From NCBI GenBank assembly GCA_002269645.1, contig NIVC01000366.1:496001-560000 (forward strand): a DNA stretch of 64,000 bases. The letters run 5' to 3'. This stretch comes from Macrostomum lignano. Its lineage: Eukaryota. Of this stretch, positions 44,655 through 59,902 are shown piece after piece (positions within the stretch are counted from its first letter, which is position 1; each line of letters starts with the position of its first letter). The position numbers and the translations under genes are program-made. Under the pieces are notes generated by a model, which saw only the letters and a program-made list of their open reading frames with translations, searched no databases and had not been told where the DNA came from.

Positions 44655-45752
44655 GCCAGCACCAAGGGGCGCCAAGGGGCGCCAGCACCAAGGGGCGCCA
44701 GCACCAAAGGGGAGCCAGCACCAGGGGAGCCAGCACCAGGGGAGCCAGCACCAAGGGGCACCAGCACCAGGGGAGCCAGCACCAAGGGGCACCAGCACCA
44801 AGGGGCGCCAGCACCAAGGAGCGCCAGCACCAAGGGGCGCCAGCACCAAGGGGCGCCAGCACCAAGGGGCGCCAGCACCAGGGGAGCCAGCACCAGGGCA
44901 GCCAGCACCAGGGGAGCCAGCACCAGGGAAGCCAGCACCAGGGGAGCCAGCACCAGGGGAGCCAGCACCAGGGGCGCCAGCACCAAAGGGGCGCCAGCAC
45001 CAAGGGGCGCCAGCACCAAGGGGCGCCAGCACCAAGGGGCGCCAGCACCAGGGGAGCCAGCACCAGGGGCGCCAGCACCAGGGGAGCCAGCACCAGGGGC
45101 GCCAGCACCAGGGGAGCCAGCACCAGGGGCGCTAGCACCAGGGGCGCCAGAACCAGGGGAGCCAGCACCAGGGGCGCCAGCACCAGGGGCGCCAGAACCA
45201 GGATGGCAGCACCAGGGGCGCCAGCACCAGGGGCGCCAGCACCAGGGGCGCCAGCACCAGGGGCGCCAGCACCAGGGGCGCCAGCACCAGGGGCGCCAGC
45301 ACCAGGGGCGCCAGCACCAGGGGCGCCAGCACCAGGGGCGCCAGCACCAGGGGCGCCAGCACCAGGGGCGCCAGCACCAGGGGCGCCAGCACCAGGGGCG
45401 CCAGCACCAGGGGCGCCAGCACCAGGGGCGCCAGCACCAGGGGCGCCAGCACCAGGGGCGCCAGCACCAGGGGCGCCAGCACCAGGGGCGCCAGCACCAG
45501 GGGCGCCAGCACCAGGGGCGCCAGCACCAGGGGCGCCAGCACCAGGGGCGCCAGCACCAGGGGCGCCAGCACTAGGGGCGCCAGCACCAGGGGCGCCAGA
45601 ACCAAAAGGGGCGCCAGCACCAAGGGGCACCAGCACCAAAGGGGCGCCAGCACCAAAGGGGCGCCAGCACCAAAGGGGCGCCAGCACCAAAGGGGCGCCA
45701 GCACCAAAGGGGCGCCAGCACCAAAGGGGCGCCAGCACCAAAGGGGCGCCAG
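44655..45752 (+). repeat. 15/16-bp GC-rich array (CCAGCACCAGGGGCG)
   Basis: About 70 units. Confidence 0.97.
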
Positions 45753-46124
45753 CAGCGGTACTCGTAGCAGATCATTCACTGCTACCCAATTCTCCTTGCC
45801 TGTCCATGAGTGTGTTGGTATCTCATGCAGTGTGCTAAATTGAGACTACAATTCAGACACGGAACTGTAACGGTTTATCAACCAGCAAAGAACGGGTCTG
45901 TCGTATCGGAATGACAATAAAAAATCTGCTTGCAGTCCTGCAGTAGCACGGAAGCGGATATTTTGAAACTCAAAGCTGTAGATGTCTGAAAATTGTGACA
46001 GTTTAAATTGCAGTAGCTATTTTTAAGAAAACTAAGATAATTCTGTCTGCTTCCTATCAGTACTTGAATAATCAAATACAGCCACAGGGCAAAATGAACC
46101 ACAGCGTAATCTGGCAATAGTTAT

Positions 46125-46652
46125 GGCGTCCCCTTGGTGCTGGCGCCCTTTAGTTATGGCGCCCCTTGGTGCTGGCGCCCCTTGGTGCTGGCGCCCCTGG
46201 TGCTGGCGCCCCTGGTGCTGGCGCCCCTGGTGCTGGCGCCCCTGGTGCTGGCGCCCCTGGTGCTGGCGCCCCTGGTGCTGGCGCCCCTGGTGCTGGCGCC
46301 CCTGGTGCTGGCGCCCCTGGTGCTGGCGCCCCTGGTGCTGGCGCCCCTGGTGCTGGCGCCCCTGGTGCTGGCGCCCCTGGTGCTGGCGCCCCTGGTGCTG
46401 GCGCCCCTGGTGCTGGCGCCCCTGGTGCTGGCGCCCCTGGTGCTGGCGCCCCTGGTGCTGGCGCCCCTGGTGCTGGCGCCCCTGGTGCTGGCGCCCCTGG
46501 TGCTGGCTCCCCTGGTGCTGGCTCCCCTGGTGCTGGCGCCCCTTTGGTGCTGGCGCCCCTTTGGTGCTGGCGCCCCTTTGGTGCTGGCGCCCCTTGGTGC
46601 TGGCGCCCCTTGGTGCTGGCGCCCCTTTGGTGCTGGCCCTCCTTTGGTGCTG
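46125..46652 (-). repeat. Same 15-bp array in inverted orientation
   Basis: (CGCCCCTGGTGCTGG)n, about 35 units. Confidence 0.97.
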
Positions 46653-47103: not shown

Positions 47104-48962
47104 TGGGTTGCCATTTAATTTTTAAGAGCCACCAACACTCATTGATGCTACACATGTGCGACTGTATAGTATACTATAGTGGCCGAGTTAATTTCGGTCT
47201 AAATTTAGCATGCAGATGAAGACATTTTTGCTTGTTATAATTGAATGCATTTTTTATCCTGCTTTTTAACCTGTCGGGGCTCCATACAAGTATTTGCCCA
47301 TCTGTCACATCCACAGACAGATCTGTGCTGATGCTATAGCGCAGCATGACAAAATCACAATATTTCGGTCATGCACTTGCAAAAAGGGTTAACAAAACAA
47401 ATATTAAAGCTGACAGCACTGACAGAGTCTGAAATTTCTGAAGCCTATATTTTTGCAAATTGTGTGTTCATTATTAATGTTTTTTTTCGTTCCGGAGTCT
47501 ATAGGGTTGGGTGGAAACTATAACAAGGCAAAGGAAATAAAAGCCAAGTTCAGGACAGGCAGGAGCTCTGGCTGCACTGACTAGGCACTTACGCACCTAA
47601 AAAAAACAAAAAAAAATAATAATTCATGCACAACTCCCTGTGCCTGACCAATTTTAGCCACATGCACAAGCCCCAAATGAATATTGGCCGCTAACGGAAT
47701 CGAACCAAGAATTAGAGCGAGACTCAGACGCGTTTTACCGCTGACCTGCTCTCTCTACTCAACACCCCTCCCTACTCTACCGTACAGTAGCTGCTGCAGA
47801 TGAGTAGCGAAGAGCGCGCAAATTTCAAAAACAAAAATATTTTCGCGTCGCACAGCGAATCACAATGAATGAGTTCAGGCGGAACTGTGTGCTGCTCAAG
47901 CAGACTAACTGCAACCGTTTCTGGACCAGCCATGCCAATGGCAATAACAACAACAATAACAATAAAAAACGGCCATTGCAGCGCACGGAAGCAAAAAAAT
48001 GACTCTGAAAATCAAGGACCTCTAAAAATTGCACCGCTGGACTGGAAGCCAGAACTTAGATTTTGACGCTTTTAATGCAGGGGCAAACGCGTTTTGTGCG
48101 TTTGCACAAATCTTAATTCTTAAAATGTGCTGTGACTCTTGGGGAGAATATCTGAGATGTCAAGGCTAAGGTCAGAAGCTACATGTAGTTTACTCAAATA
48201 TTTGTATTGCAAATTTGAAATTTGAAAATGATTATTGCACTAGATAAGAAAGGAACTACTGAACTAGCTGAGGAAATTTTGTATAGCTTGCTGGGGAGGG
48301 TACTTGCTATCAGAGGGATGCTTGCTGGGGAGAATTGCTGAGATGTCAAGTCTTGCTGGGGGGATTGCTAAGATGTCAATTGGCTTACTGGGGAATTGCT
48401 GAGATGTCAAGTCTTGGGGGGACTAGCTGAGATATAAAGGTTGAGGTCAGAAGTTTATTTAATAATTTTTATTACATTCTTTGTTAGCTCCCCAACGAGG
48501 GGGCTTAGATTGCTAATCTTAATTCTAAAAAAATTCAGCAACAAGGGTTGGCCATCTCACCAGTCAGGTTATTAACTATTTTATTATTTTCCATCACATG
48601 AGCCAGGGGTCGGCAAGCTCCGGCCCCCAGGCCACATATGCGGCCCGCAAAGCCTCTTCATCCGGCCCTCGCAGTGATTTGAAACTGCATGCACAATAGC
48701 AATCCGGCCCGCTCGATGTTTGTCTCTTCTCAGCGTTCTTCTCTCCCCTCTTCTTCTCTCCTCTCTCCTCTCCTCTCCCTTTCCTACTCTCCCTCTATCT
48801 TCTCTTTTCTACTCTCCTAACCAAATTCATCTCTCCTCTCCTCTCTCCTTATTGCTCCTTTATTCCCTCGCTTCTCCCTTCTCCTATCTCCCTTTTTTAT
48901 TCACTCTCATCTCCTCCTTCCTCCGGACGGCAATCATGCTCTAGGTTCTTTATCTGGCCCTT

Positions 48963-49826
48963 TGTAGAGTGTTCTACCTCCCGTTAAAAAAGGAAAAAAG
49001 AAGATAATCGTATAATACTACTATAAGTAAGTGAGTACACGCATGTGCGCCTAAGCTTTGAATGAATCACGCTACCAGAAAAAGATGTTACCAGAATAAT
49101 ACGCCATGAGCCATTTTCCCCTTTTAGCGCAACACGTGAATTGTCATGATACTATTTTGGATCAAAAACTTGTCTATAAATACAAGCGATCTGAAGCGGT
49201 ACCGGAGCCATTCTCCCCACGGAAGAGGAGCGCTCCGAAGAGGAAGCCTTAGGAGGACTTCCTGATCTACCAAGTCAATCGAGACTCGGTCGAGTTGTTG
49301 CGGTAAGCCTTCCTTATTTGCGCCCGTTGTGTTAGAGACGTCTCGCTCAAGTCTATTGAGACTTGAGTCTAATTGAGTCTGTTGAGACTCTTGAGTCTGT
49401 TTAGACTCCATTGGTTGCAGTCTCCAGAAGGACTGCCCCTGATAGATCTTAGAGGACTATCAGTGGTTTCCGGAGCTATACCTAGAGTGCATAGAGGCAC
49501 TGCTAGAAGAAGGAGGCTTAATTTAGACCGCAGTTTGGCGCAGGGTACCCATTGTTGCTACGAGGCCTCTGATTGGTCCTGACGGAAGATACCGGCCGGA
49601 AGAACTTATCGGAAGTACAAGAGGAACCAGGACCAGAGCAACTGAAGAATCAAGGCGCCTGATCTACGAGATCTACTGACAAGTTCCTAGCGAGAACTAC
49701 TCAAGAAATTCAAATCCGGATTAAAGGTAATTGAATACCTTCGTTTGACTTACTGGGTTGCCTAGCTGTTGAGCTAGAAGTGATTGTTCCTTGATTATCG
49801 AAAGTCGGGTAATAAGGAACACATCA
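48963..49826 (+). repeat. 5' LTR
   Basis: TGTAGAG...ACATCA. Only one substitution versus the 3' LTR was noticed by eye (49033 G vs 58782 A). Confidence 0.96.
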
Positions 49827-49828
49827 AT

Positions 49829-49846
49829 TGGTGATCTCGCCCTCTC
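49829..49846 (+). promoter_or_regulatory. Primer binding site (tRNA unassigned, tRNA-Trp-like)
   Basis: TGGTGATCTCG begins 2 nt after the LTR end. Confidence 0.6.
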
Positions 49847-50542
49847 GGCACTACTCAAACCTTGAGCAATAGCCTGGCCAAGCTATTGTAAAGTGACGAC
49901 AGAGCGACTTCATTAATTTTGCGCGCACGTGTTAGAGTTAACACTTTTTAAGTCCGTTACGTTTTGAAACTCGAGTAAAATTTGGTGTACAGGTTTGAGC
50001 ACCTGTCAAATTTGAGTACAGTTTGAGCACGCGTGTTAAAATTTTGTTTTGACGAGCTCGAGCAAGTGTGAGTTTAAAACAAAACCGAAATTAACTTCGT
50101 CGGTACACTGAAAACAAACCAAAAATAAAAAGAATCGTCGACGCAAAACAAACAAAAAATAACTGAAACATTTTGCCGGCACAAAAACTAAAACAAAACC
50201 GAAATTAATTGAAACTTCGTGGAGAGCAGAGTTAATTGACAAAAGAGAGAGAGTCAAAGAAGAGAAGAAAGACTTTGCAAAGCAAGAAGACAAGTCCACT
50301 TCAACTTGAAGATACACTTTGCGGGACGCCGCATAAGTGCGAAATCAGCAAGCGAACAGAACAAGTTCATTTGAGGACAACCAGTGGCAGCAAGCCACAC
50401 CGCATCCGAGGCCAGCGAATAACAAATCGACACCACAAGGCAATTCGTTACAGTCGAGGTTTATTCCGAGGCAAACACCACACTGGACGATCCGTTACAA
50501 ATCGATCCAGATCTTGAACTACCGTTCTACCCTATCAACAAC

Positions 50543-53500
50543 ATGGCGCGGCGCAATCCAACGGTACACAGAGACATCAAAGAAACGGTCGGTACTTTCT
50601 CGATGGAGAAAGATTTTAACACATTTGTCGACCATTTTGACCTGGTATGTAGGGAATACAACCTACAAAATCCAGAGAAGGCACAGCTGCTGCCACCTCT
50701 TCTCCAAGGTACTGCGCGAGAAATTTACGGCAAGCTGGATGCGGCAACACAGCAAAATTATCCAGCACTAATCATTCAACTGCGCGCGCATTTCAACCGT
50801 TGCGGCACAAACAGATCAGTGCTGCTGCACAAGTTGCATAACAGAAGGATGCAAGCAACAGAATCCTTCCTCGCCTTTGTGGACGATATCCGCCAGATAA
50901 TTAAGGCACTGCATCAGCCACCGCTGCAAGCTGCGGACCAACCACCACTGGGAGCGGCAGAATTGGCCGCCAGAGAAAGACAACGATTGATGGATCGTGA
51001 ACAAAACCTCATCCTGCACGTAATAAACAACGCACAGCCGTCACTTCGGGATAGACTTTTGCGTGAAAATATCGAAACCGAAGAAGACCTTTTGCGTTGC
51101 GGAATGCAATGGGAAGCCAGTGCCCCATTAATGACGACAGGCAACAATGAAGTGCAGAAACTGACGCAGCAACTAAACAAGTTAATGCAGCACCAGACAG
51201 CTGCTATCGCCGAACAAAAAAGACGAAATGAACAAGCCTCAGCCAGATGTTACTACTGCGGACAAGAAGGACATTATCAGATTAATTGTCCTCATTGGTC
51301 AACAAGATACGACAAGCCGCGACAGATATTCAACAATCAGAAGCCGCAGAAACCATGGCAGCACTATCAAAATCGCCAACAACAAGGAATGAGACGCTTC
51401 GGAAATGATAGACGCTTCGGAAATAATGACCGCTCCGGAAATGATGGCCGCTTCGGAAACGAAGGCCGCTTCAGAAGTAATGGCTACAGGCCACGCAACG
51501 TCAGATACACACAAAGACAGCCGACGCAAGCAATGCCACGATACGCGAATGCCATCACGTACACACCGGAAAATGAACAGCAAGAACAGCAAGTGTTCAC
51601 AATTGACGACTTGGAAATGGACTTCACAGTCCCGGAACTTGACATCAGCTTGATCGAAAAGAAGACGACGCACGAGGACAACACTGACAACACAGAAGAG
51701 ACGAATGAAACCGAAATGATCAAATTAAAAGAGACCACCGGAGACAGCAGAGAAAACAGGAAGAAAGTAAATCACAAGACAAGGGAGGAGGCGGAGAGCG
51801 ACATCGGCAACGAAGAAAAGATGAAAACCGGCGAAGAAAACAACTATGAATCGACAACAGTGGATGACGACAAAACGAGCATGAAAGACAAAGAAATGAA
51901 AGAAGAAGAAGAATGTAGAAGTTACGGCAACGACCACGACTGCGAGGTGCGTGATGACACGAACGACTACCAAGCCGAAAGAGGAATGCAGGAAGAACCG
52001 AGAGCGGAGAATCTAAGTTCCGACAGCGATCAAGGCTACGAAATACAATGGAAAGATGAAGAAATGGAAAAAGAACAGATGAAAGAAAAGCCGAGTTCCG
52101 ACAGCGACGAATGCTACGAGATCCGATACAAACGAAATGGTGAAGCCTATATTCAAACGGTCGACTACAAGACAGAGAAAAGATACCAAACGCAATGGAG
52201 TGAAACAACGGAAACATCGGAAGAAGCCGCAGACGAAGATAATGAAATAACCAAAAAGCAAAGCGAATCAGAAGCCTTCCGCCTGGATCAGCCAATGGAA
52301 CAACCGAAAGAATATGATGCGGACATGGAAGATAACGAATGGCGATCGCAGCCAATGCCAGCAAGGACAACGGCAAAATCCAAGAAGTGGAAAAACTGGC
52401 TATTCTGGATCATCGTGATACTACTGATAGCAGTAGTCGCCAAAGCAACGGCAACGGAAAAGCCAATGATTTGTCCAACGGATGCGCATATCCAACCGAT
52501 GATCTACAAGATACCAACCGACATCAAATGCAGTTACTTCAAGACAAACCAGACAAAACCAAAGAAGATTACACTCGATCTCTACAAGGCTAACATCAAG
52601 AAGCATCGACAACACGGGATAGTATGCTTCAGAGACAAGCACCTGGTGGAAAAAGTTTGGCGCGGACAATGGAACCGGATCCGATTTAAACAACATGAGC
52701 TACATGTGTCGCACGCGGAATGCCTACAATGGAATCAAACACTATTTTCAAAGGATGGTGAACTGGAACCAGATGAGAAGGTCGGCAACGCACAGCTGTT
52801 CAGAACAAAGAATTCAGCCAACGGTCGATATATTCACTTCTTCGGAAAATGGAAAGAATATATGGCACGCAACAGCTACTTGATCAGAAATATTCCATTC
52901 TACTACAATCCGTACGAGAAAATGGAATCGTTACAGCTGCAACTAAGCGAATGTCGATACAGTGAAGGATGGTGTCCAACGCCGATTCTACGGAAGGAAG
53001 AACTACACAGTCTACCACTGAGTCCAACATATCATCAAGACTATCGATGGCAGATTGAGCACAGAGCACAATCACACTATGAGGAACCGTACAAATCACG
53101 ACAATACTTCTTCGCGTGGGAAGTTGAGCCGGAAATTGACTGCAAGCTTCAAAAGTATCACACAGTTGAAGGAGGACTACTGTCAAATACGTTTTTGGCA
53201 AAGTCAGGAGACTTGGCACTGACGTTTCAAAAGAAACCAGTCGAGCAAAAACTGAAATGCAAGGATACAGACAAGACACTATTCATCTCGGAACAAGAGA
53301 TACCAGTCTACGTAAAGGATGAAGACAAACAAACCTTCTTGGCAATCATCAATGGAACGTATCAGCAACAAGAAAAACAGAATAGAAGACGACGTGACAT
53401 CGAACGTCCCAAACTGGTGTCAAACCGGCTGTTGTCAGCAAAGATAACGGCTTTGGATCACAATCTACACAACCAGTTAAACCACTTGCATCGAACACTG

Positions 53501-55420
53501 GTCCAGCTAACTTGCAAAATGCACGCAATCAACTTAAATTATGCCAGACAAAACTACTATGTCAACCCTACGATGACTTTTCGTAAAATCACCGGAATGA
53601 CGAACGTTTTGGCAGTTCCAATATACGAGCATCTGTTGATATACAAGTGCACGCCGATACAGCACTTTAACATCTTGCCGTCAAACACGTCAACAACCTG
53701 CTACGATAAGCCAAGGATTGAAGCGTTCTACGAAGGAAAACGAATTCAGGGATTCTTGGACACGGTACACAACATCATCGTTGGCACCGCAATACCGAGA
53801 CCTTGCACCACGGCAGTAAACTACTATCAACTGGACAATGCACTACACGTCATCAAAACAACTGGAACGACAGCAAACGTCACAGAACCGGAAGTAATCG
53901 TCGACGAAAACTACGACATGGAGGATTTGAAAATCCGATTCAACAGAACGAAGTATACGCCATTCGCCGATATCCAACTTGACGAGATAACACCAGGATG
54001 GACGATCAACGACTTCTTGCAAGCGTTCATCACCCAACGCAAGATGATTCACCAGCTGTTCACAAGAAAGGACAAAGGAACCGGGACAGGAAGATTTCCC
54101 GTCCTTGTTTCAATGGACAGCGCCATCAAATCATTTTGGACAAATAGCTTCTGGGAGCTGCTCAATGGAAGAGGCAGTCTCTATCAAGGATTCATCTTCT
54201 ACGGTGCTTGCATTGTGTGGATTGTCACGGCAATCTTCATCATTTCATCGATCGTACGGTGCTTCAGTCAAACTTGTCCAAGAGCTAAGAAGACAGTGAA
54301 TGCCATAATGCAAAGAACGACAACGGAAAGCGACAACAGTTTAGAACTAACAGAAACTGCACATTGTGAGGTTCAAGGGCAACCGACACTAGCAACGCGG
54401 CTATATCCATCGATTCCGACAACACCAACGGCACCAAGGATACAACCACCCAACTATCAAGCAGAACAGCACGAGCCAAAATGGCCGGAAAACTACGTCT
54501 GTACGCTACACGCCGAGATTGGCAAAGCAATGGCTCAGGTCATTGTCAACAACTTGCCATGTCGAGCACTACTGGATTCAGGCAGCTCGATCACAGTCAT
54601 CTCGCAACAATTATGCAACAAGCTACGACTCGCGGTACGACCAGCAGCAATCGCAGTTGCAGGAGCAGGAGGACATTCACTCAACATCCTAGGAAAAGCA
54701 GATATCGACTTGAAAATTGCTAATAAACAGCTGACGGTCCCGACGTACATCATCGACAGACTACCAAACCAAGACGTCATCGTTGGAATCGACACGTTCA
54801 AGCAGCTTCAACTACCATTGACCTTCGACTTCAACAAGCAAACGTTTAGGATCGACACGGTGGAGCAACCGCTGATCAACCAGATTCGAGTACTACCGAA
54901 AGTAACTCTGCAGCAAGATGTCATTATCCAGCCTGAAAGCGCATGCTGGGTCAGAGCGAAAACGACCAGCGCGGCAGATGAAGCAATGATATTTGATCCA
55001 CACAGGAGAGTCACGGCAAAACATCAAATCATGATGCCTACGGCACTAGTGCTGGTTGCAAAGGATAAGCAACTGCCAGTACAAATCTTCAACCCGAACA
55101 CAGAAACGGTTCATCTACGACAAGGAATGTGCATCGGTCATCTCAACACCCAAGCATCGGTTATGCTGATTGAACAAGCGACTCCACGACTAACAGAGGA
55201 AGAATTTCAAAAGAAGATCAATTTGGATGACAGCCCGATTACGGAACAGCAAAAGAGGAAAGTTCGACAGCTGTTGTGGAAGTACAACGAAGCCTTCTGC
55301 CATCATGATTACGACATCGGACGCCAAGGACATCAAACAGGAAATCAAACTTCTGCCGCACACGGAACCAATTCAGTGCAAGCCGTACCCGATCGCCAAG
55401 CATCTGCAACAACACTTTGA
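50543..55420 (+). CDS. Gag - acidic linker - Env-like class III glycoprotein - aspartic protease polyprotein (1625 aa)
   Basis: Gypsy capsid; CCHC knuckle CYYCGQEGHYQINC (51248); hydrophobic signal/TM (52397-52453); Cys-rich ectodomain with six NxS/T sequons and RRRR (53384); TM anchor (54191-54256); LLDSGS protease (54575). Confidence 0.9.
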   Translation: MARRNPTVHRDIKETVGTFSMEKDFNTFVDHFDLVCREYNLQNPEKAQLLPPLLQGTAREIYGKLDAATQQNYPALIIQLRAHFNRCGTNRSVLLHKLHNRRMQATESFLAFVDDIRQIIKALHQPPLQAADQPPLGAAELAARERQRLMDREQNLILHVINNAQPSLRDRLLRENIETEEDLLRCGMQWEASAPLMTTGNNEVQKLTQQLNKLMQHQTAAIAEQKRRNEQASARCYYCGQEGHYQINCPHWSTRYDKPRQIFNNQKPQKPWQHYQNRQQQGMRRFGNDRRFGNNDRSGNDGRFGNEGRFRSNGYRPRNVRYTQRQPTQAMPRYANAITYTPENEQQEQQVFTIDDLEMDFTVPELDISLIEKKTTHEDNTDNTEETNETEMIKLKETTGDSRENRKKVNHKTREEAESDIGNEEKMKTGEENNYESTTVDDDKTSMKDKEMKEEEECRSYGNDHDCEVRDDTNDYQAERGMQEEPRAENLSSDSDQGYEIQWKDEEMEKEQMKEKPSSDSDECYEIRYKRNGEAYIQTVDYKTEKRYQTQWSETTETSEEAADEDNEITKKQSESEAFRLDQPMEQPKEYDADMEDNEWRSQPMPARTTAKSKKWKNWLFWIIVILLIAVVAKATATEKPMICPTDAHIQPMIYKIPTDIKCSYFKTNQTKPKKITLDLYKANIKKHRQHGIVCFRDKHLVEKVWRGQWNRIRFKQHELHVSHAECLQWNQTLFSKDGELEPDEKVGNAQLFRTKNSANGRYIHFFGKWKEYMARNSYLIRNIPFYYNPYEKMESLQLQLSECRYSEGWCPTPILRKEELHSLPLSPTYHQDYRWQIEHRAQSHYEEPYKSRQYFFAWEVEPEIDCKLQKYHTVEGGLLSNTFLAKSGDLALTFQKKPVEQKLKCKDTDKTLFISEQEIPVYVKDEDKQTFLAIINGTYQQQEKQNRRRRDIERPKLVSNRLLSAKITALDHNLHNQLNHLHRTLVQLTCKMHAINLNYARQNYYVNPTMTFRKITGMTNVLAVPIYEHLLIYKCTPIQHFNILPSNTSTTCYDKPRIEAFYEGKRIQGFLDTVHNIIVGTAIPRPCTTAVNYYQLDNALHVIKTTGTTANVTEPEVIVDENYDMEDLKIRFNRTKYTPFADIQLDEITPGWTINDFLQAFITQRKMIHQLFTRKDKGTGTGRFPVLVSMDSAIKSFWTNSFWELLNGRGSLYQGFIFYGACIVWIVTAIFIISSIVRCFSQTCPRAKKTVNAIMQRTTTESDNSLELTETAHCEVQGQPTLATRLYPSIPTTPTAPRIQPPNYQAEQHEPKWPENYVCTLHAEIGKAMAQVIVNNLPCRALLDSGSSITVISQQLCNKLRLAVRPAAIAVAGAGGHSLNILGKADIDLKIANKQLTVPTYIIDRLPNQDVIVGIDTFKQLQLPLTFDFNKQTFRIDTVEQPLINQIRVLPKVTLQQDVIIQPESACWVRAKTTSAADEAMIFDPHRRVTAKHQIMMPTALVLVAKDKQLPVQIFNPNTETVHLRQGMCIGHLNTQASVMLIEQATPRLTEEEFQKKINLDDSPITEQQKRKVRQLLWKYNEAFCHHDYDIGRQGHQTGNQTSAAHGTNSVQAVPDRQASATTL

Positions 55421-56411
55421 CGAAATCATCGATAAAATGCTAAAGCACGGCATCATCAGCAAAGCTATTTCGGCTTACTCCTCACCGTGCCTACTGGTAC
55501 AGAAGAAGGAGACAAACGAAAGACGACTCGTATGCGACTTCAGACTGTTGAACAAGTACATACCGACGGATCAGCAAAGCCTACCGAAGATCTCCGAACT
55601 ACTAGCAAAGCTCAACACGGCAAAATTGTTCACGGTGTTCGACCTACGTCATGGATTTTGGCAAATTGAAATCGAGAAAGAGTCACGACAGTACACGGCT
55701 TTCAAAACCTACAATGGACAAGTATACGAGTACAATCGATCGCCGATGGGACTTAGCAACAGCCCAGCAACGATGAGTCGACTAACAGCATACATGCTAG
55801 CAGGATGCACGAACCTGCTGCACTATGTCGACGACATTTTAGCCTACGGAGAGGATTTCGAGCGACTCTACGAAGCTACGGAGAAGGCCCTAGCGCTCAT
55901 TCAACGCCAAGGTCTGAAGCTACAACCAACTAAATGCAAATTCTTCCGAGACAACGTGCGTTACCTGGGACATCAGGTGACAGCCAAAGGAATCTCACCG
56001 GACCCAGACAACGTGGAAAAGGTGAAGAAGTTTCCTACGCCAACCAGTATAACGAAGGTCCAATCATTCCTTGGACTTGCGCAATACTTCAGGAAGTTCT
56101 TACCTAACTTCGCAAAGACAGCAAAGCCACTGTACGACCTGCTCAAGTTCGACAAATGGAAGCAAGACAACTGGACACAGAGACAACAGGAAAGTTTCGA
56201 CGAAATCAAACGACAGCTGACATCAGACGCACTGCTACAGCATCCGGACTTCGACAAGCCCTTCATCATCGAGACAGACGCCTCAGGAACGGGACTCGGA
56301 GCAGTCCTACTACAGGAAACCGAGGACAAGAAGGAACGACCTATTGCTACGTCAGTCGAGCACTCAAACCAAATGAAACAAAGTGGTCAGCTACGGAACG
56401 AGAGCTACTAG
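55227..56411 (+). CDS. Reverse transcriptase plus start of RNase H (frameshifted continuation from about 55322)
   Basis: DFRLLNK, FDLRHGFWQI, PMGLSNSP, YVDD (55824), YLGH and ETDASGTGLGAVL. Confidence 0.95.
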   Translation: MTARLRNSKRGKFDSCCGSTTKPSAIMITTSDAKDIKQEIKLLPHTEPIQCKPYPIAKHLQQHFDEIIDKMLKHGIISKAISAYSSPCLLVQKKETNERRLVCDFRLLNKYIPTDQQSLPKISELLAKLNTAKLFTVFDLRHGFWQIEIEKESRQYTAFKTYNGQVYEYNRSPMGLSNSPATMSRLTAYMLAGCTNLLHYVDDILAYGEDFERLYEATEKALALIQRQGLKLQPTKCKFFRDNVRYLGHQVTAKGISPDPDNVEKVKKFPTPTSITKVQSFLGLAQYFRKFLPNFAKTAKPLYDLLKFDKWKQDNWTQRQQESFDEIKRQLTSDALLQHPDFDKPFIIETDASGTGLGAVLLQETEDKKERPIATSVEHSNQMKQSGQLRNESY

Positions 56412-58036
56412 GAGTCTTGTTCGCCCTGCGACAGTTTCATTACTACATCTATGGTTCTCCAATACAGACGATAGTACGCACGGATCATGCACCATTGACC
56501 TACGTCGTAACTACAAAAGGACAGACCAACAACCGACTCATCAGAATGACACTCAAGATCCAGGATTACAACTACAAACTCGTCTACAAACCAGGAATTA
56601 CCAACAAAGCCGCGGACGCCCTGTCAAGAGCCTATGAAGTCAACGCCATTCATCCAATCCCTAACATCAAGGAGTTGGTGGATGAAACCGAGCGCGACAA
56701 CTTCTACCAAGCGGTTAAAGACGACGACAAGAACATCAAACTCAGTCCCATGGAACGAAAATTCCTACGCAAGCAACGACAACACCTAACAATCAATAAG
56801 TCACGGCTCTACTGGATGAGCGACAATAAACCCAAGATCTACATACCATATTCGTTTCGGCAAGCAATTCTCAACGAGCTACACGACAACCCACTCGCTG
56901 GACACCTGTCGGCAGCAAAGACCATCGCGAGAGTGGAACAATACTACTTTTGGCCAACTATGTACGGCGACATCAAGCAGTATTGCAACAACTGCCATTC
57001 ATGTGCTGCATCAAAGACAGGACGACGACAGAAACCGCAGCTACAGTCCATTCCGAAGTCGACTACAATGGACTGTCTAAGCATCGACATCACCGGACCG
57101 CTACCACCGAGCTGTCTCCAGGGCATCGCCTACACCTACATTCTAACCGCCTTGGATATCTTCTCGAAGTTTGCTATCGCCATACCGATACCGGACATCA
57201 CAGCTCAGACAGTGGCAATGAGTTTCTTCAACGAAATCATTTGCAAGTACGGCACGCCGAAGAACCTCACATCGGACAACGGATCGCAGTTTACATCGCA
57301 ACTGTTTCAGCAAGTCGTAAGGATTCTCAACATTACGCAGATCTACACATCGACCTACAATCCGAAGGCAAACATGGTTGAACGGTTTCACCGCAACCTG
57401 CACGAGATGATTACACATTTCGCGCACCAACAGCCGGAAGACTGGATCATCTACCTGCAATCTGTAACAATGGCCTACAACAGCGCTATTCATCGATCAA
57501 CGGACAATACGCCATTCTTCCTAATGTTTGGACGAGACTTCCAACCGCCGAATCTGCTCGCACAGCAATTGCTACCATCGCAGTACGTGGAAGTACCGAC
57601 TTCCATTCAGAAATTCGTCACGCAACTACACCTCGCATGGAAGATCGCCAAGCACAACATTGACAACCAGGTGGCTCTGACCACCGGCAACGACGCGAGA
57701 TCGACAACCCTGACGGCCGGCGACATCGTCTACCTACACTACCCGCCACAGCAGACGCATAAACATGCACAGAAGTACAAAGGACCCTATCGAGTGGTCC
57801 AACTAACGTCACCAACAACGGCACGCCTGGCTAATGTACAAGATCCACATCAGCACCAGTTCTACGTACACATTCATCGACTAAAGAAGATCAACACTGA
57901 CACAGCGACGTTTCTACCGACATTAGACAACGCTGATCGCACGCGTTCAACGAACCGCCACATCGCGACGAAGCACGAGGAGACTCAAACGACAGATGTG
58001 AGCCAGCCACATGGCTACAACCTACGACCACGCTAG
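56156..58036 (+). CDS. RNase H C-terminal part plus integrase (true frame from about 56348)
   Basis: SRAL..W...ERELL, TDH, ADALSR, HHCC Zn finger, DDE triad (IDITG, SDNGSQF, VERFHR) and GPY motif. Confidence 0.95.
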   Translation: MEARQLDTETTGKFRRNQTTADIRRTATASGLRQALHHRDRRLRNGTRSSPTTGNRGQEGTTYCYVSRALKPNETKWSATERELLGVLFALRQFHYYIYGSPIQTIVRTDHAPLTYVVTTKGQTNNRLIRMTLKIQDYNYKLVYKPGITNKAADALSRAYEVNAIHPIPNIKELVDETERDNFYQAVKDDDKNIKLSPMERKFLRKQRQHLTINKSRLYWMSDNKPKIYIPYSFRQAILNELHDNPLAGHLSAAKTIARVEQYYFWPTMYGDIKQYCNNCHSCAASKTGRRQKPQLQSIPKSTTMDCLSIDITGPLPPSCLQGIAYTYILTALDIFSKFAIAIPIPDITAQTVAMSFFNEIICKYGTPKNLTSDNGSQFTSQLFQQVVRILNITQIYTSTYNPKANMVERFHRNLHEMITHFAHQQPEDWIIYLQSVTMAYNSAIHRSTDNTPFFLMFGRDFQPPNLLAQQLLPSQYVEVPTSIQKFVTQLHLAWKIAKHNIDNQVALTTGNDARSTTLTAGDIVYLHYPPQQTHKHAQKYKGPYRVVQLTSPTTARLANVQDPHQHQFYVHIHRLKKINTDTATFLPTLDNADRTRSTNRHIATKHEETQTTDVSQPHGYNLRPR

Positions 58037-58156
58037 AGTTTAGAGAACAACCCCGTGTAGTGACCGGGATAAAGAATAGCACTACAGCTTCGCAAGCTTG
58101 TCGTAAAAGGCGACTAATCCGAGCGACACAAAGACAGCGACAAATTGACGACAATT

Positions 58157-58531
58157 ATGGGCAACGCACTGTCAAAACAGGCGCCCCAGCCTCAGCAGCT
58201 ATATGACTGCCCGATATGTTTAACTGATGACTTGGCTGTCAAGCCACCGACTATTTGCATCAACGAACATAAAGTTTGCGGACAATGTTTAAGCGATTCA
58301 CATTATATTCAGCCATGGCAGAATTGTCCCCTCTGTAGAGATAGTTTGCGACAATGTGCCTATTGTTATTCTTGGCGCACGTTTCAATATTGTAACCACC
58401 AACATTTTATTTGCATGCACTGTTTGAAGCAAACCGCTAGTAGGGGCGTTATAGGATGCCCCTTATGTAATAGTATGCCGCGAGACTGCACGTTTCGAAA
58501 GTGGTGTCGGATCAAACCTGATGCCACTTGA
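58157..58531 (+). CDS. Accessory ORF: tandem RING-like Zn fingers with N-terminal myristoylation motif (124 aa)
   Basis: ATTATGG Kozak context; MGNALS; CPIC..CINEHKVCGQC..CPLCR; CAYC..CNHQHFICMHC..CPLC. Confidence 0.8.
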   Translation: MGNALSKQAPQPQQLYDCPICLTDDLAVKPPTICINEHKVCGQCLSDSHYIQPWQNCPLCRDSLRQCAYCYSWRTFQYCNHQHFICMHCLKQTASRGVIGCPLCNSMPRDCTFRKWCRIKPDAT

Positions 58532-58696
58532 TGTCTACGCGATATTCGAGTTTTGACCGCAATATGTACTGAAAAGTTTTTAGAGTTTTGACCAAACCCT
58601 CGCTTCACTAGACGCGCACAAAATCAATTGTTTATTTCCTATATTAACTGATCACCACAGAATTTTATTGTTAAAACTCGGGACGAGTTTTTTCGT

Positions 58697-58708
58697 AAAA
58701 AAGGGAGA
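58697..58708 (+). promoter_or_regulatory. Polypurine tract
   Basis: AAAAAAGGGAGA immediately before the 3' LTR. Confidence 0.8.
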
Positions 58709-58711
58709 TTT

Positions 58712-59575
58712 TGTAGAGTGTTCTACCTCCCGTTAAAAAAGGAAAAAAGAAGATAATCGTATAATACTACTATAAGTAAGTAAGTACACGCATGTGCGCC
58801 TAAGCTTTGAATGAATCACGCTACCAGAAAAAGATGTTACCAGAATAATACGCCATGAGCCATTTTCCCCTTTTAGCGCAACACGTGAATTGTCATGATA
58901 CTATTTTGGATCAAAAACTTGTCTATAAATACAAGCGATCTGAAGCGGTACCGGAGCCATTCTCCCCACGGAAGAGGAGCGCTCCGAAGAGGAAGCCTTA
59001 GGAGGACTTCCTGATCTACCAAGTCAATCGAGACTCGGTCGAGTTGTTGCGGTAAGCCTTCCTTATTTGCGCCCGTTGTGTTAGAGACGTCTCGCTCAAG
59101 TCTATTGAGACTTGAGTCTAATTGAGTCTGTTGAGACTCTTGAGTCTGTTTAGACTCCATTGGTTGCAGTCTCCAGAAGGACTGCCCCTGATAGATCTTA
59201 GAGGACTATCAGTGGTTTCCGGAGCTATACCTAGAGTGCATAGAGGCACTGCTAGAAGAAGGAGGCTTAATTTAGACCGCAGTTTGGCGCAGGGTACCCA
59301 TTGTTGCTACGAGGCCTCTGATTGGTCCTGACGGAAGATACCGGCCGGAAGAACTTATCGGAAGTACAAGAGGAACCAGGACCAGAGCAACTGAAGAATC
59401 AAGGCGCCTGATCTACGAGATCTACTGACAAGTTCCTAGCGAGAACTACTCAAGAAATTCAAATCCGGATTAAAGGTAATTGAATACCTTCGTTTGACTT
59501 ACTGGGTTGCCTAGCTGTTGAGCTAGAAGTGATTGTTCCTTGATTATCGAAAGTCGGGTAATAAGGAACACATCA
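58712..59575 (+). repeat. 3' LTR
   Basis: Near-identical copy of 48963-49826. Confidence 0.96.
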
Positions 59576-59902
59576 CCTTGGGGTAATAAAGTTTGCCAAC
59601 CCCTGCTCTAGGTTCTTTATCTGGCCCTTGGGGTAATAAAGTTTGCCAACCCCTGCTCTAGGTTCTTTATCTGGCCCTTTGGGTAATAAAGTTTGCCAAC
59701 CCCTGCTCTAGGTTCTTTATCTGGCCCTTGGGTAATAAAGTTTGCCAACCCCTGCTCTAGGTTCTTTATCTGGCCCTTGGGGTAATAAAGTTTGCCAACC
59801 CCTGCTCTAGGTTCTTTATCTGGCCCTTGGGTAATAAAGTTTGCCAACCCCTGCTCTAGGTTCTTTATCTGGCCCTTGGGTGAAAAAGTTTGCCGACCCC
59901 TG
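59576..59902. repeat. ~50-bp tandem array of MITE 3' ends
   Basis: GGGTAATAAAGTTTGCCAACCCCTGCTCTAGGTTCTTTATCTGGCCCTTG, about 6 units. Confidence 0.93.

Follow-up and report, generated by a model that had tools for sequence, protein, structure and literature searches.

The complex retroviruses carry small, multiply spliced genes between pol and the 3′ LTR, among them Vif, Vpu and Vpx, that are linked to ubiquitination; the products are dispensable in some settings and act as adaptors that recruit host cullin ligases. Large DNA viruses carry RING E3 ubiquitin ligases (ICP0, PE38, IAP-type proteins, OsHV-1 ORF96, giant-virus RINGs) and use them against host defence. Among LTR elements, those of bdelloid rotifers have extra ORF3 genes behind pol (PMC5408684), and the element Cer1 has a spliced regulator, CERV (PMC10309623). 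Spliced mRNAs are expected or shown for these genes, which code for exonucleases, esterases, membrane proteins or an export factor; the words RING and ubiquitin occur zero times in the rotifer paper. A further system of relevance is the arenavirus Z protein, which in the consulted part of PMC3509680 has 90–99 aa, a myristoylation signal, one central RING and late domains.

Here we analyze an accessory gene of an LTR element in Macrostomum lignano. The window, i.e. the whole stretch of DNA that was examined, has 64,000 nucleotides, and positions are given in its numbering. Like Vif, Vpu and Vpx, the gene belongs to a set of several small accessory genes between pol and the 3′ LTR, but in this case the element appears to bring a RING of its own. 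The position behind pol is shared with the rotifer and Cer1 genes, whereas here the extra genes form a tandem paralog family. An earlier note on this DNA had likened the gene to arenavirus Z. We argue that the likeness stems from truncation, and that the family may well consist of E3 ligases directed at the host.

Carrier element

The LTR element spans 48963–59575 (~10.6 kb) and has CCTT as target-site duplication. Its parts are the following:

48963–49826, plus strand: 5′ LTR, 864 bp, TG...CA, one mismatch against the 3′ LTR
49175–49183, plus strand: TATA box within the LTR, predicted by motif match
49829–49840, plus strand: primer-binding site, 12 nt identical to the listing of Mlig_errantivirus_2
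50483–55420, plus strand: gag (CCHC knuckle)-TM1-env-TM2-protease in a single frame; ATG at 50543, probable CTG start at 50483
55227–58036, plus strand: RT, RNase H and integrase, spread over two further frames in the window copy
58697–58708, plus strand: polypurine tract (PPT), 5′ of the 3′ LTR
58712–59575, plus strand: 3′ LTR, pairing with the 864-bp 5′ LTR

With its LTRs, primer-binding site, PPT, domain order (gag, env, protease, RT, RNase H, integrase) and gB-type env, the carrier is a young Gag-Env-Pol gypsy/errantivirus. The env is of the gB/chuvirus type with an RRRR furin site and is flanked by two hydrophobic segments; its Pfam match to Monjiviricetes_fusion (E 1e-5) is below the cut-off. 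As assembled, the window polyprotein is broken into three frames, while a single frame of at least 2,474 codons is present in two of seven other copies examined. The clade placement is taken from a published listing (PMC13524379), which in the part of supplementary file 2 consulted has Platyhelminthes_Rhabditophora_Mlig_errantivirus_2 at row 1445. Since this entry agrees with the window element in host species, env type (HSV/gB), Gag-Env-Pol order, LTR length (~864 bp), element length (~10.6 kb) and the 12-nt primer-binding site, the carrier is, on the listed properties, already catalogued.

The hydrophobic segments of the Gag-Env-Pol frame are at aa 620–638 and 1216–1234, and env lies inside the Gag-Pol frame (50543–58036), between the two. 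This embedding implies a polyprotein that would be threaded through the membrane, with Gag and Pol facing the cytosol. Ahead of the gag ATG there are 20 in-frame codons (50483–50542), the first of which is CTG in six of six loci; four subfamilies differ in them mostly at third positions, and the conservation ends upstream. The Gag N-terminus is thus likely to be CUG-initiated rather than to begin at MARRNP. The earlier note had Gag beginning MARRNP and lacking a myristoylation signal; the absence of Gly2 holds, but MARRNP is unlikely to be the true start.

A number of observations concern the genomic surroundings. The carrier is inserted at the margin of a 50-bp satellite array (48933–48962 and 59576–59900). 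A 15-bp satellite forms two inverted arrays ~600 bp apart (44675–45612 and 46104–46628), and many further minisatellites are found in the window. Elsewhere, several subfamilies contribute LTR-cassette fragments and nested copies to dense clusters on the same strand (C2121:1-70000, C1130:1-46000, C87:227000-280000), which could be insertion hot spots or piRNA-cluster-like loci. In three loci (L032, L034 and L035, contigs C272 and C4009) the cassette-PPT-LTR unit is tandemly repeated with no intervening gag-pol.

The window ORF and its family

The ORF under study lies between the integrase stop at 58036 and the PPT:

58157–58531, plus strand: accessory gene A, short allele, 124 aa, from the ORF and family comparison
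58157–58177, plus strand: MGNALSK, N-myristoylation-type motif, confined to one clade of gene A
58208–58336, plus strand: RING finger 1, Siah-like spacing, C-P-x-C-R end, from profile and alignment
58355–58468, plus strand: finger 2, RING-like, no terminal Arg, homologous to finger 1
58532–58661, plus strand: untranslated remnant of the helical domain, with a second stop at 58589–58591

The earlier note had described a separate ORF with a strong start context, an MGNALS N-terminus and two C3HC4-type fingers, and all of this is borne out. The ORF reads MGNALSK after the start context ACAATTATGG, and both fingers have full ligand sets, namely C18-x2-C21-x12-C34-x3-H38-x2-C41-x2-C44-x12-C57-x2-C60 in finger 1 and C67-x2-C70-x8-C79-x3-H83-x2-C86-x2-C89-x11-C101-x2-C104 in finger 2. 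The C3HC4 ligand columns are invariant or nearly so across 17 sequences.

It is important to point out that the stop at 124 aa is premature. Homologous codons continue in frame to the second stop, which falls in the family's invariant Trp-Pro motif. The full-length parent has 222 aa, with a helical domain added, and is followed by a second gene of 210 aa with the same build; the window copy lacks both the remainder of gene A and the whole of gene B. It is thus truncation that gives the ORF its small, Z-like size, and the short allele read alone misleads. The stretch ~58480–58660, at 63% to the long form and 70% to another subfamily, stems from a more remote lineage. An 8-nt deletion was considered as the reason for the 124-aa length and rejected, since the region aligns gap-free with the 144-aa copies.

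By its sequence relations, gene A is the first of two to three paralogous genes between integrase and PPT across subfamilies, in cassettes of the types A-B, A-C, A-C-D and A-C-B. The paralogs are ~200–220-aa proteins made up of a RING, a second finger and a ~115-aa helical domain, and identity between paralog groups is 18–37%. In 42 of 47 loci the integrase, the upstream motif (see below) or the PPT is found within the same stretch; two of the remaining five have the family LTR, and three have none of these marks.

The window ORF has at least 151 matches in its own genome (150 of 212 candidates were scored). Among the 30 best, 15 end at 124 aa, six at 144, five at 222 and four elsewhere. The annotation of M. 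lignano includes a gene nearly identical to the second one of the cassette, and three full-length homologues were found in other sequencing data (E 1e-33 to 1e-38), one of which falls inside group A. Word-index protein searches gave no match beyond the query, and single-protein queries found no relatives in metagenome or viral contigs.

Of 17 pairs, 15 have unsaturated dS, and their pairwise dN/dS is 0.12–0.38; p<0.02 holds for every one of the 17, which cover four paralog groups. For the helical part of gene A the values are 0.10–0.24. The comparison among copies that the earlier note had proposed hence gives purifying selection, and the cassette family is judged from these alignments to be old and kept up by selection rather than captured recently and neutral. 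The positive selection that an arms race might give left no sign in the pairwise test, with dN/dS well below 1. As to the worry that the ORF might be disrupted in most copies, among the 30 best matches of gene A 21 are truncated (124 or 144 aa) and five full-length; the paralog groups of the family are under purifying selection.

Fingers and helical domain

On the window ORF, Pfam RING matches remain below the cut-off (best E 0.003). The cut-off is passed by two of eight other cassette proteins scanned, and that of Sina_RING is reached at 11 cassette places. A PDB profile search with finger 1 returns RING E3s, SIAH1 first at E 3e-5; together with the Siah-like spacing this agrees with the proposal that finger 1 is Sina-like. 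The C-x3-H spacing is that of Siah/Sina and TRIM-type E3s, and of the Pfam families it is Sina_RING that matches either finger most often. In contrast to those ligases, the cassette proteins have tandem fingers and a helical domain and no Sina substrate-binding domain or B-box; in Pfam the RING profile alone matches, and the Sina zinc fingers and substrate-binding domain are absent after the RING. Finger 2 aligns to finger 1 in hhalign with 95.2% and E 2.5e-8, and it matches Sina_RING in 19 of 21 members (E up to 10). It is best read as an internal duplicate of a Siah-like finger, as far as such profile comparisons go.

In RING E3s the linchpin Arg sits right after the last Cys of the RING. 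Of 94 distinct cassette ORFs scanned, 59 had both fingers matched; in all 59, finger 1 ends in P-x-C-R and finger 2 is without the terminal Arg. Finger 1 thus combines the cross-brace ligand set with the E2-binding Pro and a linchpin-type Arg at its end. According to the part of PMC12326332 consulted, the Arg linchpin stabilises E2~ubiquitin.

The AlphaFold model of the 222-aa protein has a pLDDT of 87, and its finger 1 superposes on RING E3s with ~2 Å over 46–48 residues. Foldseek matches are weak and concern finger 1 only (best E 0.03 and 0.005), with VIA Z scores of at most 4.9. The RING E3s of large DNA viruses, which like the present genes are virus-borne, fill the viral fold and Atlas match lists; these matches are confined to finger 1 and fall short of significance, and the carrier here is a retroelement. 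The helical domain modelled alone has a pLDDT of 82. It belongs to no Pfam family, its best PDB profile match has E 0.015, and it has no usable Atlas match. Its best viral Foldseek match has E 1.1, and its best VIA Z score of 6.8 (rmsd 3.8 over 86 residues) is within the noise of helical models. In these profile and model comparisons the domain appears to have no known family or fold match, which is not proof of a new fold.

Within the same genome, finger 1 is matched by host Siah (E 1.9e-8) and by host RING+B-box exons (E 7e-8). The two match about equally, so neither is singled out as donor, and neither gene type matches the finger 2 or helical domain profiles. TRIM-like clusters of host RING+B-box exons with the same C-x3-H spacing were seen on contigs C210, C1491 and C2920.

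Splicing and expression signals

The signals that could bear on expression of the cassette are listed here, with a slash marking the cut:

49294–49308, plus strand: splice donor TTGCG/GTAAGC, cut between 49302 and 49303, conserved; no ATG upstream in exon 1
49584–49599, plus strand: acceptor within the LTR, AG ending at 49588; the contig of run X3 resumes with the next 11 letters
49721–49732, plus strand: candidate donor AAAG/GTAATT, cut between 49726 and 49727, motif present, overlapping an ATTAAA hexamer
58055–58117, plus strand: conserved non-coding motif around CTACAG/ (AG ending at 58087), three short hairpins possible

In 16 of the 27 loci that were scanned, a donor of the G/GTAAGC type follows the TATA box at a distance of 109–128 nt. 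We also used contigs from four sequencing runs, which are presumed to be RNA, an identity that is guessed. One contig, of run X3 (one of the four runs), departs from the reference exactly between 49302 and 49303 and resumes past the LTR acceptor. There is no ATG in the LTR after the TATA box, and the RING ATG is the first one past the acceptor at 58087. The motif at 58055–58117 is present upstream of all eight group-A genes compared; its folding z is only −0.2 to −1.3, and it has no Rfam match. As to the downstream genes, 11 of the 13 B/C genes have a YAG 0–2 nt ahead of the ATG, and none of the four group-D genes does; counted by lineage, this is 5 of 9 B/C/D lineages versus 12 of 143 background ATGs (p 4e-4). 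No heat-shock-element pattern was found in the LTR.

The conserved LTR donor and the YAG acceptors point to spliced mRNAs, as read from these motifs. The earlier note had proposed a subgenomic splice from AAAG/GTAATT to CTACAG. Both sites are in place, and the proposal is likely right in kind, but the better-supported main donor is TTGCG/GTAAGC, and the contigs of the four presumed-RNA runs list no joint from the LTR to a gene A or gene B acceptor, that of the RING exon included.

Upstream of group-D genes (L034, L046) and of gene B in L088, (AT)n runs take the place of the YAG acceptor, and a different expression mode is possible for these genes. In runs X1 and X3 a contig joint leads from env to the start of the upstream motif (L051:2510-7392, ~53170–58050 in the window); its ends are not GT-AG, and it is perhaps a deletion variant.

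Proposed function

The reading that we favour, with some reservation, is that the cassette genes encode RING E3 ubiquitin ligases that act on the host, the activity being predicted. In this mechanism, a short non-coding LTR exon 1 would be spliced to separate acceptors before each accessory gene. Finger 1 would bind and activate E2~ubiquitin, and finger 2 would take, within the same protein, the part of the non-catalytic partner of a RING heterodimer. The diverged helical domain would pick the substrate, for which host factors restricting the element are the most likely candidates. One lineage has gained a myristoylation-type N-terminus that, going by the motif, would bring gene A to membranes, and the 124-aa ORF of the window is a truncated allele that has lost the helical domain and gene B and is under relaxed selection. 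The membrane-tethered E3 ligase suggested earlier gains support from the finger-1 Arg, the purifying selection and the retention of G2 and S6 in the clade (34/36 and 36/36, see below), although its activity is a prediction.

Another option is that the proteins, in the manner of CERV, regulate the element's own cycle, be it at RNA export, at transcription, or by turning over Gag/Pol so as to control copy number; the RING may then serve as a scaffold or be directed at products of the element itself. We regard this as rather unlikely, though it fits a good deal of what is seen: the spliced accessory layout, the strong purifying selection, the precedent of a spliced regulator in a gypsy element (the part of PMC10309623 consulted), and the deletion copies of the L040 type. 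The latter (contig C301, 7–8 near-identical matches) have lost pol and part of env and retain gag, fused to the integrase tail, together with complete A and C genes. However, one housekeeping task leaves three to four paralogs at 18–37% identity unexplained, the linchpin-type Arg is invariant, and a myristoyl anchor poorly suits a nuclear export factor. Lineages without the full cassette have multiplied as well, though supply in trans is possible.

The short allele

We now turn to the short allele of the window, which has spread: the 22 short-form loci have 19 distinct 3′ flanks, a count that has to be seen against the description of the M. lignano assembly as redundant in the part of PMC12801592 consulted. 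In the 17 of 23 short-form copies usable for both genes, synonymous and non-synonymous variants number 11:18 in the RING ORF versus 25:3 in the integrase (p 8e-5). The window gene is thus relaxed relative to the integrase in the short lineage. Set against 77:286 sites, the 11:18 ratio gives p 0.06, i.e. no clear departure from neutral. Two short-form copies have G2S, while others have lost zinc ligands or acquired stops. Multiplication is also seen in a second lineage, whose allele encodes 70 aa and which lacks gene B. Since truncated alleles outnumber full-length ones among the 30 best matches (21 vs 5), the cassette is not needed in cis; the 124-aa ORF probably either has no essential role in cis, serves as a decoy, or has its function supplied by full-length copies.

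It could also be that the 124-aa allele is a separate functional unit, e.g. a membrane-bound dominant-negative or an E2 decoy, which aids the spread of the short lineage. The abundance of the allele (half of the 30 best matches) and its many flanks speak for this, and so do the presence of the short-form junction in three of the four presumed-RNA runs, the part specific to the long form being covered in two, and the variants common to several short-form copies. The latter lean synonymous (9:6), so some remaining function of the short allele is possible. Shared synonymous differences can, on the other hand, arise by recombination between lineages, the variants as a whole are not distinguishable from neutral and are far more relaxed than those of the integrase, and Gly2, zinc ligands and the frame itself have been lost in individual copies. 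We therefore consider a separate unit improbable.

Comparison with arenavirus Z

What the gene has in common with Z is that a small protein of an enveloped element starts with a Gly2 motif and continues with a C3HC4-type finger. Within the MG clade, G2 is kept in 34 of 36 distinct ORFs and S6 in 36 of 36, the latter by four codons, while MGxxxS/T occurs in only one of 508 other ATG ORFs of the window and loci; the Gly2/Ser6 motif looks selected, by this measure. Gly2 is limited to one branch of group A (support 100/100), and the extension is not present in other A genes, in B, C or D, or in the outside homologues. The tree accordingly places Gly2 as a derived gain of one subfamily.

The idea of a myristoylated, Z-like RING matrix protein, which would provide membrane binding and budding absent from Gag, draws on this conserved motif, on the presence of an env, and on the absence of Gly2 from Gag at either candidate start. 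It is nevertheless very improbable. In sister subfamilies that share the env and the MARRNP Gag, the first gene of the cassette lacks Gly2. The hydrophobic segment at aa 620–638, which is in frame with Gag, could itself tether Gag. The lineage with the most copies has an allele in decay, and the short and 70-aa alleles have spread anyway. The sizes differ too, with 124 aa and two fingers in the window ORF versus 90–99 aa and one central RING in Z (the part of PMC3509680 consulted), and the parent has two fingers, a helical domain and the linchpin-type Arg. As to late domains, PTAP, PSAP and PPxY are absent from the window ORF and from 21 full-length members, YP-x-L is present in one group-D member of these 21, and direct reading finds no YxxL in the window ORF.

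Profile comparisons give the same picture. The Z profile zf-P11 (PF03854) has no match on the window ORF at E<=1 and is not among the first 25 of 34 families for the 21 finger-2 sequences. A genome scan, in which 35 candidates were scored, gave 22 zf-P11 matches at E<=10, none over the cut-off and none on contigs of the listed element matches. With respect to the Z-specific fold around zinc site II, no Z chain is among the matches listed in the PDB profile, Foldseek and VIA comparisons. The earlier note had given finger 2 a ligand spacing similar to that of the Z RING; in these comparisons finger 2 resembles finger 1 and Siah-type RINGs, not the Z profile, and the suggested matrix function gains no support. 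The resemblance to Z is convergent at most.

A further option, a recently captured host gene fragment in neutral drift, can appeal to the finger-1 matches in host Siah and RING+B-box exons, but it is largely refuted for the family and highly improbable, given that the likeness to those genes extends neither to finger 2 nor to the helical domain, that the paralog tree is deep, that full-length homologues exist elsewhere (E 1e-33 to 1e-38) and that dN/dS is far below 1.

Conclusions

The carrier is known, and the accessory family is apparently undescribed. Extra genes of LTR elements and RING ligases of DNA viruses are familiar, and a retroelement with its own tandem RING family is unreported in the literature found. 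We found no description of a tandem RING-ligase cassette in a retroelement, in a search whose coverage left subscription journals and Repbase/GyDB outside; RING occurs zero times in the consulted parts of PMC13524379 and its supplement, and RING and ORF each occur zero times in the main text of PMC12801592.

A more far-reaching version of the host-directed ligase reading can be put forward as a tentative possibility. It holds that a flatworm ERV lineage, independently of the vertebrate complex retroviruses, has come to multiply spliced, self-encoded tandem-RING E3s with a new helical substrate-binding domain. Each paralog would then be directed against a different restriction factor (piRNA-pathway or TRIM-like), one would be myristoyl-anchored, and the short 'cheater' copies would exploit the arsenal in trans.

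If the cassette proteins are ligases, their substrates would name host anti-retroelement factors, and the counter-defence of an invertebrate retroelement would become directly testable in a stem-cell and regeneration model with transgenesis.
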